DNA of 64,000 nucleotides from Escherichia coli (GCF_003018235.1 NZ_CP027437.1), one strand, 5' to 3'. Positions 13,802 through 45,800 are shown, counted from the stretch's first letter. Numbers and translations: made by a program. The notes: generated by a model not told the origin, from the sequence alone.

Positions 13802-14475
13802 CAAACGTTCTGATTGTTGAAGATGAACAGGCTATTCGTCGCTTTCTGCGCACGGCGCTGGAGGGCGATAGGATGCGCGTCTTTGAGGCCGAAACGCTGC
13901 AACGCGGCTTGCTGGAAGCGGCTACCCGTAAGCCAGATTTGATTATTCTCGATCTCGGCCTGCCCGATGGTGATGGGATTGAGTTTATCCGCGACCTGCG
14001 CCAGTGGAGCGCAGTGCCGGTGATTGTGCTTTCCGCACGTAGCGAAGAGAGCGACAAAATCGCCGCGCTGGATGCCGGAGCGGATGATTATCTGAGTAAG
14101 CCGTTTGGCATTGGCGAATTGCAGGCCCGTCTGCGCGTCGCATTACGCCGCCACTCTGCCACCACCACGCCCGATCCGCTGGTGAAATTTTCCAATGTTA
14201 CCGTCGATTTAGCGGCTCGAGTGATCCATCGCGGTGAGGAAGAGGTGCATCTCACCCCGATTGAGTTCCGCCTGCTGGCGGTGTTGCTTAATAATGCGGG
14301 AAAAGTGCTCACCCAGCGCCAGCTCCTTAACCAGGTGTGGGGGCCAAACGCGGTCGAACACAGTCATTATTTGCGTATTTATATGGGGCATCTGCGACAA
14401 AAACTGGAACAGGATCCCGCCCGCCCACGCCATTTCATTACTGAAACCGGTATTGGGTATCGGTTTATGCTTTGA
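13798..14475 (+). CDS. kdpE: KdpE response regulator (225 aa)
   Basis: GTG start overlapping the kdpD stop; receiver plus winged-helix translation [17 protein letters not shown]... Confidence 0.95.
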   Translation: MTNVLIVEDEQAIRRFLRTALEGDRMRVFEAETLQRGLLEAATRKPDLIILDLGLPDGDGIEFIRDLRQWSAVPVIVLSARSEESDKIAALDAGADDYLSKPFGIGELQARLRVALRRHSATTTPDPLVKFSNVTVDLAARVIHRGEEEVHLTPIEFRLLAVLLNNAGKVLTQRQLLNQVWGPNAVEHSHYLRIYMGHLRQKLEQDPARPRHFITETGIGYRFML

Positions 14476-14519
14476 ATTGTTATTCAATAAATTCGCTTTA
14501 ATAGTGATTAATTTATTAT

Positions 14520-14554
14520 TAAACCTGCTCCAAATATTATTATTTGGCAGGTTT
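14520..14554 (+). terminator. Hairpin downstream of kdpE (possible terminator)
   Basis: 8-bp inverted repeat AAACCTGC ... GCAGGTTT with an 18-nt AT-rich loop, 45 bp after the kdpE stop; T-tract weak. Confidence 0.3.
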
Positions 14555-14749
14555 AATTTCTTAACGCAAATATAAAACACGAAATTACAACATTTAAGTA
14601 ACAAAACAGCATCTAATATAGCAATATTCATAATTAATGATTTATTATCTGGGGTATGATCGTTTTTTTTTGATCTTCTTCACAGATTATAGCCATTTCA
14701 TGGATAGAATAACTCTACCTTCAACTGACACAGCAAGAGGTAAAGGTAA

Positions 14750-14854
14750 ATGGAAAATAATAACCGCTTAATGCCTCATATAAGGCGGACAACCCATATC
14801 ATGAAGTTTGCCCATCGTAATAGTTTTGACTTTCATTTCTTTAATGCCCGCTAG
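14750..14854 (+). CDS. speFL: SpeFL, ornithine-sensing leader peptide of speF (34 aa)
   Basis: Translated by hand: MENNNRLMPHIRRTTHIMKFAHRNSFDFHFFNAR, stop TAG at 14852-14854; about 300 bp upstream of speF. Matches the recalled arrest peptide in length and HIRRTTH core. Not in the ORF track (under 60 aa). Confidence 0.8.
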   Translation: MENNNRLMPHIRRTTHIMKFAHRNSFDFHFFNAR

Positions 14855-15164
14855 TCTTCTGACTAAAGGGCACCCCAACGTACAGGTCTCCCTGACTTTA
14901 AGCATTACAGGTTAATACCTGTATCCTTCGGTGCTCATATACTGCTAACCCTTTTAAACTCTAAATAATTCGAGTCGCAGCACTTGCAACTTGAGGTATG
15001 ACGAGTATAGCCAGTTACCGGGCTGGTCTGGGTTATTGCATCTACAAAAAGCAAACTACTGATTTATTTATCAGCGGTGGGGTTTTGCTTTTTTTCCGGC
15101 GTGATCGATTTCTCCTTTGAGAAATTGAGGACCTGCTATTACCTGAAATAAAGAGATGAACAAA

Positions 15165-17363
15165 ATGTCAGAATTAAAAATTGCCGTTAGTCGTTCTTGC
15201 CCGGATTGTTTTTCAACTCATCGCACATGCGTGAATATTGACGAAAGTAATTATATTGACGTTGCCGCCATTATTTTATCGGTCAATGATGTGGAACGTG
15301 GAAAACTCGATGAAATAGACGCTACTGGCTATGGCATTCCTGTTTTTATTGCAACGGAAAATGAAGAACGTGTACCCGCAGAATATCTGCCACGTATTTC
15401 TGGTGTCTTCGAACATTGCGAATCACGTAAAGAGTTTTATGGACGTCAGTTAGAAACCGCTGCAAGCCATTATGAAACGCAACTGCGCCCGCCCTTCTTC
15501 CGCGCACTGGTCGATTATGTTAATCAGGGCAATAGTGCTTTTGACTGCCCTGGTCATCAGGGGGGTGAGTTTTTCCGTCGCCATCCGGCAGGCAATCAGT
15601 TCGTGGAATACTTTGGTGAGGCGCTGTTCCGTGCTGACTTGTGCAACGCCGACGTAGCGATGGGCGATCTGCTGATTCACGAAGGCGCGCCATGCATTGC
15701 ACAGCAACATGCGGCTAAAGTCTTTAATGCCGATAAAACCTATTTCGTTTTAAACGGTACTTCATCTTCTAATAAAGTGGTCTTAAACGCATTGCTGACG
15801 CCGGGCGATCTGGTGTTGTTTGACCGCAATAACCATAAATCTAACCACCACGGTGCGTTGCTACAGGCTGGCGCGACACCGGTTTATCTGGAAACCGCAC
15901 GTAACCCGTATGGTTTTATCGGTGGTATTGACGCTCACTGTTTTGAAGAAAGTTACCTGCGTGAGCTGATTATAGAAGTTGCACCGCAGCGGGCAAAAGA
16001 GGCTCGTCCTTTCCGCCTCGCCGTTATTCAGCTAGGCACTTACGACGGTACGATTTATAACGCCCGTCAGGTGGTGGATAAAATTGGTCATCTGTGTGAC
16101 TACATCCTCTTTGACTCCGCATGGGTCGGCTATGAGCAGTTTATCCCGATGATGGCGGACTGTTCACCACTGTTGCTGGATCTTAATGAGAACGATCCGG
16201 GTATTCTGGTTACGCAATCCGTACATAAACAGCAGGCTGGTTTTTCTCAAACTTCACAAATCCATAAAAAAGACAGCCACATCAAAGGGCAACAGCGTTA
16301 TGTACCGCACAAACGCATGAACAACGCCTTTATGATGCACGCCTCCACCAGCCCGTTCTATCCGCTGTTTGCCGCACTGGATATCAACGCCAAAATGCAT
16401 GAAGGTGTCAGCGGTCGTAATATGTGGATGGATTGTGTGGTAAATGGCATTAATGCCCGCAAACTGATCCTCGATAACTGTCAGCATATTCGTCCGTTCG
16501 TACCTGAACTGGTGGATGGTAAACCCTGGCAGTCGTATGAAACAGCGCAAATTGCGGTTGATCTGCGCTTCTTCCAGTTTGTACCAGGGGAACACTGGCA
16601 TTCTTTTGAAGGCTATGCAGAGAATCAATACTTTGTTGATCCGTGCAAACTGTTGCTGACAACCCCAGGTATTGATGCACGTAACGGCGAATATGAAGCG
16701 TTCGGTGTACCCGCGACGATTCTTGCTAATTTCCTGCGCGAAAATGGCGTAGTGCCGGAAAAATGCGATCTTAACTCCATCCTCTTCCTGCTGACTCCAG
16801 CAGAAGATATGGCCAAACTTCAGCAACTTGTTGCCCTGCTGGTACGCTTCGAAAAACTGCTGGAATCTGATGCGCCGCTGGCGGAAGTGCTACCTTCCAT
16901 CTACAAACAGCATGAAGAGCGCTACGCCGGTTATACGCTTCGTCAGTTGTGCCAGGAAATGCATGATTTGTATGCCCGCCACAACGTGAAACAACTGCAA
17001 AAAGAGATGTTCCGTAAGGAACACTTCCCACGCGTCAGCATGAATCCGCAAGAAGCTAACTACGCCTATTTACGCGGTGAAGTGGAGCTGGTTCGTCTGC
17101 CGGATGCAGAAGGCCGTATCGCTGCCGAAGGTGCGCTTCCTTATCCTCCGGGTGTGCTGTGTGTTGTTCCGGGTGAAATCTGGGGTGGTGCTGTTTTGCG
17201 TTACTTCAGCGCTCTGGAAGAAGGGATCAACCTGCTGCCAGGTTTTGCACCGGAGCTGCAGGGTGTCTATATCGAAGAACATGATGGTCGTAAGCAAGTT
17301 TGGTGCTATGTCATCAAGCCTCGTGATGCGCAAAGCACCCTGTTGAAAGGGGAAAAATTATGA
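15165..17363 (+). CDS. speF: SpeF, inducible ornithine decarboxylase (732 aa)
   Basis: Fold-III PLP decarboxylase translation. ATG at 15165 has AAGAG about 10 nt upstream and gives the K-12 length; the ORF-track ATG at 15156 lacks spacing to the same motif. Confidence 0.9.
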   Translation: MSELKIAVSRSCPDCFSTHRTCVNIDESNYIDVAAIILSVNDVERGKLDEIDATGYGIPVFIATENEERVPAEYLPRISGVFEHCESRKEFYGRQLETAASHYETQLRPPFFRALVDYVNQGNSAFDCPGHQGGEFFRRHPAGNQFVEYFGEALFRADLCNADVAMGDLLIHEGAPCIAQQHAAKVFNADKTYFVLNGTSSSNKVVLNALLTPGDLVLFDRNNHKSNHHGALLQAGATPVYLETARNPYGFIGGIDAHCFEESYLRELIIEVAPQRAKEARPFRLAVIQLGTYDGTIYNARQVVDKIGHLCDYILFDSAWVGYEQFIPMMADCSPLLLDLNENDPGILVTQSVHKQQAGFSQTSQIHKKDSHIKGQQRYVPHKRMNNAFMMHASTSPFYPLFAALDINAKMHEGVSGRNMWMDCVVNGINARKLILDNCQHIRPFVPELVDGKPWQSYETAQIAVDLRFFQFVPGEHWHSFEGYAENQYFVDPCKLLLTTPGIDARNGEYEAFGVPATILANFLRENGVVPEKCDLNSILFLLTPAEDMAKLQQLVALLVRFEKLLESDAPLAEVLPSIYKQHEERYAGYTLRQLCQEMHDLYARHNVKQLQKEMFRKEHFPRVSMNPQEANYAYLRGEVELVRLPDAEGRIAAEGALPYPPGVLCVVPGEIWGGAVLRYFSALEEGINLLPGFAPELQGVYIEEHDGRKQVWCYVIKPRDAQSTLLKGEKL

Positions 17364-18679
17364 GTCAGGCTAAATCGAACAAAATGGGCGTCGTTCAGTT
17401 AACCATACTGACGATGGTCAACATGATGGGCTCCGGTATCATCATGCTGCCGACAAAGCTTGCCGAAGTTGGGACAATTTCAATTATCTCCTGGCTGGTG
17501 ACAGCCGTAGGCTCAATGGCACTGGCATGGGCATTCGCAAAATGCGGTATGTTCAGCCGTAAATCAGGCGGTATGGGCGGTTATGCGGAGTATGCTTTCG
17601 GTAAATCCGGGAACTTTATGGCGAACTATACCTACGGCGTCTCACTGCTAATTGCTAACGTCGCGATTGCTATTTCGGCGGTTGGTTACGGCACCGAACT
17701 GCTCGGCGCGAGTTTGTCGCCAGTGCAGATTGGTCTTGCGACCATCGGGGTGCTGTGGATTTGTACCGTGGCTAACTTTGGTGGTGCGCGCATTACCGGG
17801 CAAATCAGTAGCATTACCGTGTGGGGGGTCATTATTCCGGTGGTAGGCCTGTGCGTTATCGGCTGGTTCTGGTTTAGCCCGACGCTTTACGTTGATTCCT
17901 GGAATCCGCATCATGCACCGTTCTTCAGTGCGGTAGGTTCTTCCATCGCTATGACGCTGTGGGCTTTTCTTGGTCTGGAGTCTGCGTGTGCGAATACTGA
18001 TGTAGTGGAAAACCCGGAACGTAATGTGCCAATCGCGGTACTCGGCGGTACGTTAGGTGCGGCGGTGATTTATATCGTCTCCACCAACGTGATTGCAGGG
18101 ATTGTGCCTAATATGGAGCTGGCAAATTCAACGGCACCATTTGGCCTGGCCTTCGCACAGATGTTCACGCCAGAAGTGGGTAAAGTCATTATGGCGCTGA
18201 TGGTGATGTCCTGCTGCGGTTCGCTGCTTGGCTGGCAGTTCACCATTGCCCAGGTGTTTAAATCTTCATCTGATGAAGGCTACTTCCCTAAAATTTTCTC
18301 CCGTGTAACCAAAGTGGATGCACCGGTGCAGGGAATGTTGACCATTGTGATTATCCAGAGCGGGTTGGCGCTGATGACGATTAGCCCGTCGCTAAACAGT
18401 CAGTTCAACGTGCTGGTTAACCTAGCCGTGGTGACCAATATCATTCCGTATATTCTGTCAATGGCGGCATTAGTCATTATTCAGAAGGTCGCTAATGTGC
18501 CCCCCTCAAAAGCGAAAGTTGCAAACTTTGTTGCTTTTGTTGGCGCGATGTACAGCTTTTATGCGCTGTACTCATCCGGGGAAGAAGCCATGCTATACGG
18601 TTCCATCGTGACCTTCCTCGGTTGGACACTGTATGGTCTGGTCTCACCACGCTTTGAACTGAAAAATAAACACGGTTAA
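17360..18679 (+). CDS. potE: PotE, putrescine-ornithine antiporter (439 aa)
   Basis: APC-family transporter; ATG overlaps the speF stop (ATGA). Confidence 0.95.
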   Translation: MSQAKSNKMGVVQLTILTMVNMMGSGIIMLPTKLAEVGTISIISWLVTAVGSMALAWAFAKCGMFSRKSGGMGGYAEYAFGKSGNFMANYTYGVSLLIANVAIAISAVGYGTELLGASLSPVQIGLATIGVLWICTVANFGGARITGQISSITVWGVIIPVVGLCVIGWFWFSPTLYVDSWNPHHAPFFSAVGSSIAMTLWAFLGLESACANTDVVENPERNVPIAVLGGTLGAAVIYIVSTNVIAGIVPNMELANSTAPFGLAFAQMFTPEVGKVIMALMVMSCCGSLLGWQFTIAQVFKSSSDEGYFPKIFSRVTKVDAPVQGMLTIVIIQSGLALMTISPSLNSQFNVLVNLAVVTNIIPYILSMAALVIIQKVANVPPSKAKVANFVAFVGAMYSFYALYSSGEEAMLYGSIVTFLGWTLYGLVSPRFELKNKHG

Positions 18680-18690
18680 TTAAGCAAAGC

Positions 18691-18722
18691 AAAAAAGGGC
18701 GATCTTCCGACCGCCCTTTTTC
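18691..18722. terminator. Bidirectional intrinsic terminator between convergent potE and pgm
   Basis: A6 - GGGCG..CGCCC hairpin - T5, in the 56-bp gap between the potE stop (18679) and pgm stop (18736). Confidence 0.55.
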
Positions 18723-18735
18723 TTATTTAATGTGT

Positions 18736-36533: not shown

Positions 36534-36610
36534 GGCTACGTAGCTCAGTTGGTTAGAGCACATCACTCATAATGATGGGGTCACAGGTTCGAATCCCGTC
36601 GTAGCCACCA
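36534..36610 (+). tRNA. metT: tRNA-Met (elongator, anticodon CAU)
   Basis: 77-nt GGCTACGTAGCTCAGTTGGTTAGAGCACATCACTCATAATGATGGGGTCACAGGTTCGAATCCCGTCGTAGCCACCA with encoded CCA. Confidence 0.95.
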
Positions 36611-36620
36611 TCTTTTTTTT

Positions 36621-36705
36621 GCGGGAGTGGCGAAATTGGTAGACGCACCAGATTTAGGTTCTGGCGCCGCAAGGTGTGCGAGTTCAAGTCTCGCCTCCCG
36701 CACCA
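36621..36705 (+). tRNA. leuW: tRNA-Leu (anticodon UAG), class II with long variable arm
   Basis: 85-nt GCGGGAGTGGCGAAATTGGTAGACGCACCAGATTTAGGTTCTGG...CGCACCA. Confidence 0.95.
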
Positions 36706-36728
36706 TTCACCAGAAAGCGTTGTACGGA

Positions 36729-36803
36729 TGGGGTATCGCCAAGCGGTAAGGCACCGGTTTTTGATACCGGCATTCCCTGGTTCGAATCCAGGTACCCCAG
36801 CCA
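36729..36803 (+). tRNA. glnU: tRNA-Gln (anticodon UUG)
   Basis: 75-nt TGGGGTATCGCCAAGCGGTAAGGCACCGGTTTTTGATACCGG...CCAGCCA. Confidence 0.95.
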
Positions 36804-36837
36804 TCTTCTTCGAGTAAGCGGTTCACCGCCCGGTTAT

Positions 36838-36912
36838 TGGGGTATCGCCAAGCGGTAAGGCACCGGTTTTTGATACCGGCATTCCCTGGTTCGAATCCAG
36901 GTACCCCAGCCA
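36838..36912 (+). tRNA. glnW: tRNA-Gln (anticodon UUG), second copy
   Basis: Identical to the glnU sequence. Confidence 0.95.
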
Positions 36913-36927
36913 TCGAAGAAACAATCT

Positions 36928-37004
36928 GGCTACGTAGCTCAGTTGGTTAGAGCACATCACTCATAATGATGGGGTCACAGGTTCGAATCCCGTCGTAGCC
37001 ACCA
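36928..37004 (+). tRNA. metU: tRNA-Met (elongator, anticodon CAU), second copy
   Basis: Identical to the metT sequence. Confidence 0.95.
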
Positions 37005-37052
37005 AATTCTGAATGTGTCGAATATGTTCGGCAAATTCAAAAACCAATTTGT

Positions 37053-37127
37053 TGGGGTATCGCCAAGCGGTAAGGCACCGGATTCTGATTCCGGCATTCC
37101 GAGGTTCGAATCCTCGTACCCCAGCCA
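37053..37127 (+). tRNA. glnV: tRNA-Gln (anticodon CUG)
   Basis: 75-nt TGGGGTATCGCCAAGCGGTAAGGCACCGGATTCTGATTCCGG...CCAGCCA. Confidence 0.95.
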
Positions 37128-37164
37128 ATTTATTCAAGACGCTTACCTTGTAAGTGCACCCAGT

Positions 37165-37239
37165 TGGGGTATCGCCAAGCGGTAAGGCACCGGATTCTGA
37201 TTCCGGCATTCCGAGGTTCGAATCCTCGTACCCCAGCCA
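37165..37239 (+). tRNA. glnX: tRNA-Gln (anticodon CUG), second copy
   Basis: Identical to the glnV sequence. Confidence 0.95.
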
Positions 37240-44722: not shown

Positions 44723-45631
44723 ATGCAATTACGTAAACCTGCCACAGCAATCCTGGCCTTGGCGCTTTCCGCAGGACTGGCACAGGCAGATGACGCCGCC
44801 CCGGCAGCGGGCAGTACGCTGGACAAAATCGCCAAAAACGGTGTGATTGTCGTCGGTCACCGTGAATCTTCAGTACCTTTCTCTTATTACGACAATCAGC
44901 AAAAAGTGGTGGGTTACTCGCAGGATTACTCCAACGCCATTGTTGAAGCAGTGAAAAAGAAACTCAACAAACCGGACTTGCAGGTAAAACTGATTCCGAT
45001 CACCTCACAAAACCGTATTCCACTGCTGCAAAACGGCACTTTCGATTTTGAATGTGGTTCTACCACCAACAACGTCGAACGCCAAAAACAGGCGGCTTTC
45101 TCTGACACTATTTTCGTGGTCGGTACGCGCCTTCTGACCAAAAAGGGCGGCGATATCAAAGATTTTGCCGACCTGAAAGGCAAAGCCGTAGTCGTCACTT
45201 CCGGCACTACCTCTGAAGTTTTGCTCAACAAACTGAATGAAGAGCAAAAAATGAATATGCGAATTATCAGCGCCAAAGATCACGGTGACTCTTTCCGTAC
45301 CCTGGAAAGCGGTCGTGCCGTTGCCTTTATGATGGATGATGCTCTGCTGGCTGGTGAACGTGCGAAAGCGAAGAAACCAGACAACTGGGAAATCGTCGGC
45401 AAGCCGCAGTCTCAGGAAGCCTACGGTTGCATGTTGCGTAAAGACGATCCGCAGTTCAAAAAGCTGATGGATGACACCATCGCGCAGGTGCAGACCTCCG
45501 GTGAAGCGGAAAAATGGTTTGATAAATGGTTCAAAAATCCAATTCCGCCGAAAAACCTGAACATGAATTTCGAACTGTCAGACGAAATGAAAGCACTGTT
45601 CAAAGAACCGAATGACAAGGCACTGAACTAA
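44723..45631 (+). CDS. gltI: GltI, glutamate/aspartate periplasmic binding protein (302 aa)
   Basis: ATG at 44723 after AAGGAG; signal peptide MQLRKPATAILALALSAGLAQA. Confidence 0.95.
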   Translation: MQLRKPATAILALALSAGLAQADDAAPAAGSTLDKIAKNGVIVVGHRESSVPFSYYDNQQKVVGYSQDYSNAIVEAVKKKLNKPDLQVKLIPITSQNRIPLLQNGTFDFECGSTTNNVERQKQAAFSDTIFVVGTRLLTKKGGDIKDFADLKGKAVVVTSGTTSEVLLNKLNEEQKMNMRIISAKDHGDSFRTLESGRAVAFMMDDALLAGERAKAKKPDNWEIVGKPQSQEAYGCMLRKDDPQFKKLMDDTIAQVQTSGEAEKWFDKWFKNPIPPKNLNMNFELSDEMKALFKEPNDKALN

Positions 45632-45788
45632 TTACAAGAACCAGGGGCGGAAATTCCAGCCCTCTCGATTGTTACGTAGCACGGACAGACTATACGCCTG
45701 ATGGTCGTTCCCCATCGGGCCTGAAAACCGCAATACGCTGGGTAACAATCTTCGAGGGTAGCAGTTAACGCTGCTACCCTCTTTTTTC
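45632..45788 (+). ncRNA. sroC: SroC sRNA (processed gltI-gltJ spacer, GcvB sponge)
   Basis: Whole gltI-gltJ intergenic spacer, ending in GAGGGTAGCAG-TTAACG-CTGCTACCCTC hairpin plus TTTTTT (45754-45788). Assigned from recalled K-12 location; 5' end approximate. Confidence 0.55.
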
Positions 45789-45800
45789 TGGAGTAGATTT

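Follow-up and report, generated by a model that had tools for sequence, protein, structure and literature searches.

Among the leader peptides that respond to small metabolites, SpeFL of Escherichia coli K-12 (b4803; PDB 6TBV and 6TC3; Herrero del Valle et al., 10.1101/604074) is a textbook example of the ribosome acting as a sensor of a small molecule. In the published mechanism, the ornithine-dependent stalling of the ribosome on the leader blocks Rho-dependent termination of transcription ahead of the speF-potE operon (10.1101/604074; PMC6386406). The biochemistry of the arrest was established on the K-12 allele, for which toeprints and a cryo-EM structure demonstrated the direct and selective capture of ornithine by the nascent peptide. 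The arrest requires an N-terminal hairpin, since the deletion of residues 1–7 abolishes it, followed by the HIRRXXH loop at residues 10–16, in which Pro9, Arg12 and Arg13 line the ornithine pocket, and by a phenylalanine core (F20/F26/F28/F30/F31) with N32 displacing U2585; a stop codon must also follow codon 34 immediately, and the rare Arg codons 12 and 13 keep polysomes off the Rho site (10.1101/604074). The arrest depends on ornithine, resists puromycin and is placed at codons 33-34.

The counterpart described in Salmonella enterica, orf34 (Ben-Zvi et al. 2019, PMC6386406), is likewise a 34-codon leader containing the consecutive AGG-CGG codons. [quoted passage not shown] A third system, TnaC, which senses tryptophan ahead of tnaCAB, follows the same logic, in that a short leader peptide and a free amino acid together prevent the peptide from being released at the stop codon; the ribosome halted there covers a Rho-utilisation site, and the catabolic genes downstream are therefore transcribed (10.1101/604074). 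Unlike the two former systems, TnaC is no homologue of SpeFL, having an unrelated sequence, another ligand and another exit-tunnel pocket.

The locus considered here lies in a stretch of 64,000 nucleotides of E. coli DNA (NZ_CP027437.1), referred to below as the window, in which the gene order is kdpE – speFL – speF – potE, with kdpE ending at 14475, upstream of speFL. The genes of the locus and the translation signal of the leader are the following:

14750..14854, + strand: speFL, from the ORF listing, PDB and Pfam matches, RefSeq annotation and conservation.
14736..14740, + strand: Shine-Dalgarno sequence AGAGG of speFL, 9 nt ahead of the ATG, by direct reading of the sequence.
15165..17363, + strand: speF, the target of the regulation, encoding the inducible ornithine decarboxylase, intact, from the RefSeq annotation of a 99.6% identical locus.
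17360..18679, + strand: potE, which comes second in the operon and encodes the putrescine-ornithine antiporter, intact, from the ORF listing and RefSeq.

The leader reading frame has an ATG start, 34 codons and a TAG stop, and encodes the peptide MENNNRLMPHIRRTTHIMKFAHRNSFDFHFFNAR. The original prediction had placed an intact 34-codon frame about 300 bp upstream of speF, and both statements agree with the locus, where the distance from the speFL stop is 310 nt to the annotated speF ATG (15165, RefSeq, MSELK...) and 301 nt to an in-frame ATG at 15156, and where the 34 codons, all critical residues and codons and the UAG stop are kept. The match to SpeFL that it proposed is borne out by the alignment to the SpeFL chain of PDB 6TBV/6TC3, with 32/34 residues identical (94%, E 1.7e-18, phmmer), and by Pfam PF10940 'Leader peptide SpeFL' (formerly DUF2618), which gives 27.9 bits against a gathering cut-off of 25; the peptide is, however, not identical to that of K-12, from which it departs at S5N and T7L. 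The mechanism that it cited, ornithine-induced stalling that prevents Rho-dependent termination, corresponds to the published one. The claim that the leader had been missed by the ORF track is true for that track's own 60-aa cut-off but not for the NCBI pipeline, which annotates speFL: RefSeq carries 'speFL: leader peptide SpeFL' at the homologous site in thousands of E. coli genomes, and at least 1,000 public contigs carry exactly the peptide of the window under this name.

Sequence, position and annotation thus agree that the 34-codon frame is speFL, so that the finding is a correct re-identification of a known and already annotated element, which confirms that the control element of this operon is intact. 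It is very probable that the frame is the SpeFL leader of the speF-potE operon and works as in E. coli K-12 and Salmonella. Some observations weigh against this reading, namely the two residue differences from K-12 in the N-terminal hairpin, about 50 extra nucleotides in the spacer, a promoter-distal region almost unrelated to that of K-12, a C-over-G bias reaching only about the 90th–95th percentile, a sigma-70 scan without a promoter and the search of NCBIfam, in which no model matched the SpeFL peptide of the window.

A side observation concerns the start of speF, whose mechanically called ORF begins at 15156, the RefSeq start being equivalent to 15165. At 15156-15167 a 2-nt insertion in comparison to K-12 (GATGAACAAAATG vs GATGAAAAATG) brings the upstream ATG at 15156 in frame with the speF start at 15165, and a possible N-terminal extension of SpeF by the three residues MNK could result.

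The portions of the peptide to which the arrest of K-12 SpeFL is ascribed are located as follows:

14777..14797, + strand: HIRRTTH, codons 10-16, the ornithine-recognition motif HIRRXXH (motif and role from 10.1101/604074).
14780-14788, + strand: rare codons ATA-AGG-CGG, codons 11-13, from codon reading.
14789..14851, + strand: effector domain, codons 14-34, with F20, F26, F28, F30, F31 and N32, the residues needed for arrest (10.1101/604074).

The peptide of the window reads P9 H10 I11 R12 R13 T14 T15 H16, a run in which 78 homologues are invariant except at the first X of the motif, and it contains all of F20, F26, F28, F30, F31 and N32. Upstream of the loop, residues 1-4 (MENN) are the same as in K-12 and invariant in the homologues, while the two substitutions, S5N and T7L, both fall in the N-terminal hairpin, at the two positions that vary most within the family; N5 is found in 59/78 and L7 in 34/78 homologues, so that the window has the commonest N-terminus and the S5/T7 of K-12 represents a minority state. 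At the codon level, codon 12 is mostly AGG and codon 13 nearly always CGG or CGA in 80 related loci. The UAG stop at 14852-14854 follows codon 34 directly. Locus and length are those of the K-12 element, with which the window also shares the HIRRXXH motif, the Phe core, the AGG-CGG codons, the UAG stop and the pause hairpin. With respect to Salmonella, the sampled loci (L038, L039) differ from the window in having F7 and M19 and in the length of their spacer, about 379 nt, and S. Typhimurium orf34 ends in a UGA stop (PMC6386406).

Conservation of the leader was evaluated by scanning one genome per species, which gave 103 stretches encoding a relative, of which 80 loci were kept, belonging to Escherichia, Salmonella, Citrobacter, Enterobacter, Kluyvera, Lelliottia, Cedecea, Edwardsiella, Hafnia and other Enterobacterales. 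An absence of the frame from relatives would have spoken against the original prediction; instead, its length is exactly 34 codons in 80/80 loci, and a homologue of speF lies 197-381 nt downstream in 79/80. The substitution pattern is that of a coding sequence: among 78 distinct homologous DNA sequences the mean minor-allele fraction per column is 0.055/0.029/0.28 at codon positions 1/2/3, pN/pS averages 0.08, and neither of the other forward frames is open in any of the 78. Invariant residues in the 78 homologues include, among others, P9, H10, I11, R12, R13, H16, F26, F28, F31 and N32. An exhaustive HMMER search of representatives at 50% identity returned 14 matches, many of them mis-called or frameshifted ORFs, which helped with variant N-termini and were too sparse for statistics.

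In Edwardsiella hoshinae two speFL-like ORFs are found on different contigs of one genome (L082, L083). The protein encoded after the second ORF shares only about 35% identity with the N-terminus of SpeF in the aligned portion, so that this protein may be another decarboxylase controlled by a leader of this kind.

Beyond the peptide, the leader RNA has several elements that are predicted to fold or that show a compositional bias:

14845..14872, + strand: pause hairpin containing the UAG stop, UGCCC-GC-UAGUC-UUCU-GACUA-AA-GGGCA, -16.1 kcal/mol, z -3.2, corresponding to the RNA-polymerase pause hairpin of the published model.
14883..14894, + strand: small hairpin CAGG-UCUC-CCUG just 3' of the pause hairpin (helix 3), 78% of cells paired, 4/4 pairs with some double change.
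14906..14923, + strand: hairpin UACAGGU-UAAU-ACCUGUA (helix 5), 83.5% paired, 7/7 pairs changed on both sides.
14870..14934, + strand: alternative helix 14870-14874 : 14930-14934 plus 14881-14886 : 14918-14923, 86% of cells paired.
14760..14990, + strand: C-rich, G-poor candidate Rho-utilisation region, C/G 1.5-2.2 in 78-nt windows, from composition only.
14954..15004, + strand: extra spacer segment of about 50 nt with its own stem-loop, -15.1 kcal/mol, z -1.9, absent from K-12 and Citrobacter-type leaders.
15046..15128, + strand: conserved 3' part of the leader with AAAAAGCAAA/UUUGCUUUUU, the CUGAUUUAUUUAUCAG hairpin and the GAUUUCUC-N4-GAGAAAUU hairpin, highly conserved across genera.

The covariation of the leader was analysed on an alignment of 82 sequences. 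The pause hairpin, which also folds in K-12, covaries among 80 distinct sequences, its closing pair 18-49 being CG in 32, UA in 22 and UG in 17; of this pair, alignment column 18 falls on the third, synonymous position of codon 32 (Asn). The hairpin at 14906-14923 has a counterpart in K-12, ACAGGC...GCCUGU, in which a compensatory swap has replaced U-A by C-G. The alternative helix is mutually exclusive with both of these hairpins, and its pair 49-125, GC in 44 and AU in 23 sequences, has a covariation score of 0.276, higher than in all shuffles and all slid controls; this helix fits the alternative leader conformations reported in Salmonella (PMC6386406).

The C-rich stretch overlaps the 3' half of speFL and continues for ~135 nt past its end. 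Across the window the C/G background has a median of 1.0 and a 90th percentile of 1.56, and the bias of the leader ranks only at about the 90th-95th percentile; an excess of C over G is compatible with a predicted rut site, and composition of this kind is no proof of one. Further downstream, the 3' ~110-160 nt of the leader (15046-15150), including CUGAUUUAUUUAUCAG, UUGCUUUUUUUCCGG and GAUUUCUC-N4-GAGAAAUUGAGGACCUGCUAUUACC, are more conserved across genera than the synonymous sites of speFL, a conservation that suggests further RNA or DNA elements. The search of Rfam returned no family at gathering score in the speF leader; a match to isrH at 14953-15009 (17.3 bits against a cut-off of 45, E 0.025) was judged to be due to chance.

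A further element is a predicted long-range helix, whose two arms are:

14821..14843, + strand: 5' arm, speFL codons 24-32, from the minimum-energy fold of the window leader.
15149..15176, + strand: 3' arm, comprising the speF ribosome-binding site AAAGAG (15150-15155) and the start codon (15165), from the same minimum-energy fold.

The two arms would form 22 pairs. The predicted duplex energy is -19.5 kcal/mol (z -3.1) for the window leader, which resembles the -18.1 of locus L039 of Salmonella, where the corresponding helix was verified, and -8.9 (z -0.8) for K-12. By the same prediction, z lies below -2 in only 31/81 loci, and K-12 is not among them.

On the reading of the DNA, every sequence feature on which the published mechanism relies is present in the window, and we infer from published work on other alleles that this one binds ornithine, arrests the ribosome and depends on Rho, and where its transcription starts. 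The start would lie some 30 nt ahead of speFL, and RNA polymerase would pause at the stop-codon hairpin, which the ribosome translating speFL would open. At low ornithine, the ribosome would terminate at UAG and depart, while the rare codons ATA-AGG-CGG (11-13) would hold back the trailing ribosomes; because the first ribosome has left and its followers are held back, the C-rich RNA from the 3' half of speFL onward would be bare, Rho could load on it and transcription would end before speF. At high ornithine, one L-ornithine molecule would be trapped between the 23S rRNA and the nascent HIRRXXH loop, the Phe-rich C-terminal domain would compact and peptide release by RF1 would be blocked, and the stalled and queued ribosomes would cover the Rho site, allowing the transcription of speF-potE. 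The stalled ribosome would also occupy speFL codons 24-32, which are otherwise predicted to pair with the speF ribosome-binding site, and the translation of speF would thereby be opened simultaneously.

At the DNA level, the window and K-12 are about 97-98% identical over the flanking 25 kb and only 71-92% identical in a sharply bounded block at ~14450-16100, which begins at the kdpE stop, reaches some 900 nt into speF and includes the kdpE-speFL spacer, speFL and the leader. The two speFL alleles are separated by about 11 synonymous differences (pS 0.64) and by differences in 2 codons (pN 0.04), a divergence equal to that seen between genera. Searched for sensitively with speFL and the hairpin, the element was located in 5,043 of 5,426 complete E. 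coli genomes, with an identity to the window of at least 95% in 3,335, of 90-95% in 4 and of 80-90% in 1,704, the latter being of the K-12 type (~85%). The control region of E. coli is thus found in two discrete forms, essentially without intermediates (only 4 genomes between them), and the form of the window is present in about 61% of complete genomes, O157:H7 and strain 042 included.

The two forms also differ in the spacer between speFL and speF, which measures 310 nt in the window and 257 nt in K-12, the length of the latter (~255 nt) being that of Citrobacter, Enterobacter and most other genera. The extra segment at 14954-15004 is present, and fast-evolving, in E. albertii (L019) and in E. 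coli E69 (L021); its occurrence at 1 place per genome ruled it out as a dispersed repeat. Upstream of the leader, little of the kdpE-speFL spacer can be aligned between the window and K-12 apart from a block around 14657-14720.

These differences bear on a reading in which the frame is real and regulatory and the region of the window type behaves differently from that of K-12, with another threshold for ornithine, pH or anaerobiosis or with a stronger translational lock on speF; its causes could be the distinct upstream region, the stem-loop of about 50 extra nucleotides or the much stronger helix of speFL with the ribosome-binding site. The existence of two discrete haplotypes (3,335 vs 1,704 genomes, 4 between), the confinement of the divergence to ~14450-16100 against a 97-98% background, with a speFL pS of 0.64, the spacer of 310 vs 257 nt beside a largely unalignable kdpE-speFL spacer, and the predicted duplex of -19.5 (z -3.1) vs -8.9 (z -0.8) kcal/mol all point in this direction. 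However, the core sensor residues, codons and hairpins are the same in both forms, the duplex energies are predictions only, and the range of spacer lengths, 197-381 nt, among the species that keep the system indicates that the extra segment may be neutral. On balance a different behaviour is possible, and an operation of the window leader like that of K-12 and Salmonella appears the better account.

A broader proposal, which is put forward with rather low confidence, is that two ancient and discrete haplotypes of the speF control region, in a proportion of about 2:1 and with a synonymous divergence of genus level, are maintained in E. coli by balancing selection or derive from introgression, and that, the biochemically studied form being only the minority one of K-12, they might differ in the threshold at which they are induced, or in a further translational lock like that of Salmonella, with strain-dependent polyamine and acid-stress responses as a consequence. 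The conclusions drawn from K-12 reporters may not transfer quantitatively to most pathogenic strains. Among the papers returned by a literature search on speF, phylogroups and ornithine decarboxylase, none appears, from its title and the opening of its abstract, to deal with the speF leader or its variants.

A second reading attributes to the leader ORF mainly the sensing of arginine supply rather than of ornithine, the pausing at the two Arg codons altering the folding of the mRNA and its sensitivity to RNase G. The window keeps the AGG-CGG pair and covarying, mutually exclusive helices, and an arginine-dependent destabilisation through alternative structures was reported for Salmonella orf34 (PMC6386406). 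The same work, however, also found positive regulation by ornithine, so that the arginine effect would be a layer added to ornithine sensing and not an alternative to it; moreover, the toeprints and cryo-EM data show direct and selective ornithine capture (10.1101/604074), and the strict conservation of HIRRXXH and of the Phe core is left unexplained by codon pausing alone. Arginine as the main signal is therefore unlikely, and ornithine sensing by SpeFL remains the preferred function of the frame.

The candidate elements upstream of speFL are the following:

14657..14685, + strand: upstream block TGATCGTTTTTTTTTGATCTTCTTCACAG, kept in both E. coli forms, from the window/K-12 alignment.
14705..14710, + strand: candidate -10 hexamer TAGAAT, in the block GGATAGAATA conserved between the window and K-12.

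The block at 14657..14685 is a possible regulator-binding or promoter-proximal element. A simple sigma-70 scan did not call the TAGAAT promoter, finding no good -35, and the promoter and terminator scan of the + strand upstream of speFL gave nothing convincing, for which reason the promoter position is taken from Salmonella only; when placed from the start site of that species, the transcription start would be near 14717-14719.

Just 3' of kdpE, at 14518-14557, a perfect 11-nt inverted repeat, ATTAAACCTGC / GCAGGTTTAAT, is absent from K-12 and may be the terminator of the kdp operon or what is left of inserted DNA. The 112 nt that directly follow kdpE, which match alone in one genome (H20), were ruled out as a repeat or mobile element, IS1 replacing speFL-speF-potE there.

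A 44-aa ORF at 14637..14771 overlaps the start of speFL in another frame, and public records list it as 'hypothetical protein' or 'TonB-dependent receptor'; neither Pfam nor NCBIfam gives a match for it, and it is unannotated in K-12, where the region does not align, so that it was rejected as a rival gene and is probably a spurious call. The idea that the 34-codon frame arose by chance in an AT-rich intergenic region, or that the real gene is this 44-aa ORF, draws on the abundance of short ORFs around speFL (within 2 kb, 34 reach 20 aa or more) and on the public annotation of the longer one, and has next to no probability, being already refuted by the conservation data (pN/pS 0.08, other frames closed in 78/78 sequences, 34 codons in 80/80 loci). 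The PDB and Pfam matches of speFL, as against an ORF without family match, also speak against it, as does the position of the 44-aa ORF, which would begin upstream of the start of transcription suggested by Salmonella.

Individual strains depart from this arrangement. In the uropathogenic strain CFT073 (L085, NC_004431.1, 1475-1560) a 63-nt in-frame deletion removes codons 3-23 of speFL, HIRRXXH included; the remnant has 13 codons with the same stop codon and is labelled in RefSeq as a partial 'TonB-dependent receptor' pseudogene. In E. coli LAM_HS (L004, 2600-3400) IS1 replaces speFL-speF-potE between kdpE and pgm, and in another genome (H21, NZ_AP022177.1) IS1 is found inside a leader of the K-12 type. 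On the other side of the operon, potE of the window runs almost directly into the pgm-side ORF (18680-18735), and the 1.66-kb segment of K-12 at 715242-716906, with the ybfI and ybfG pseudogenes and ybfP, is absent after potE. Elsewhere in the window, and unrelated to the leader, Rfam matches at the gathering threshold mark a cluster of seven tRNAs at 36534-37236 and the sRNA sroC at 45627-45789.
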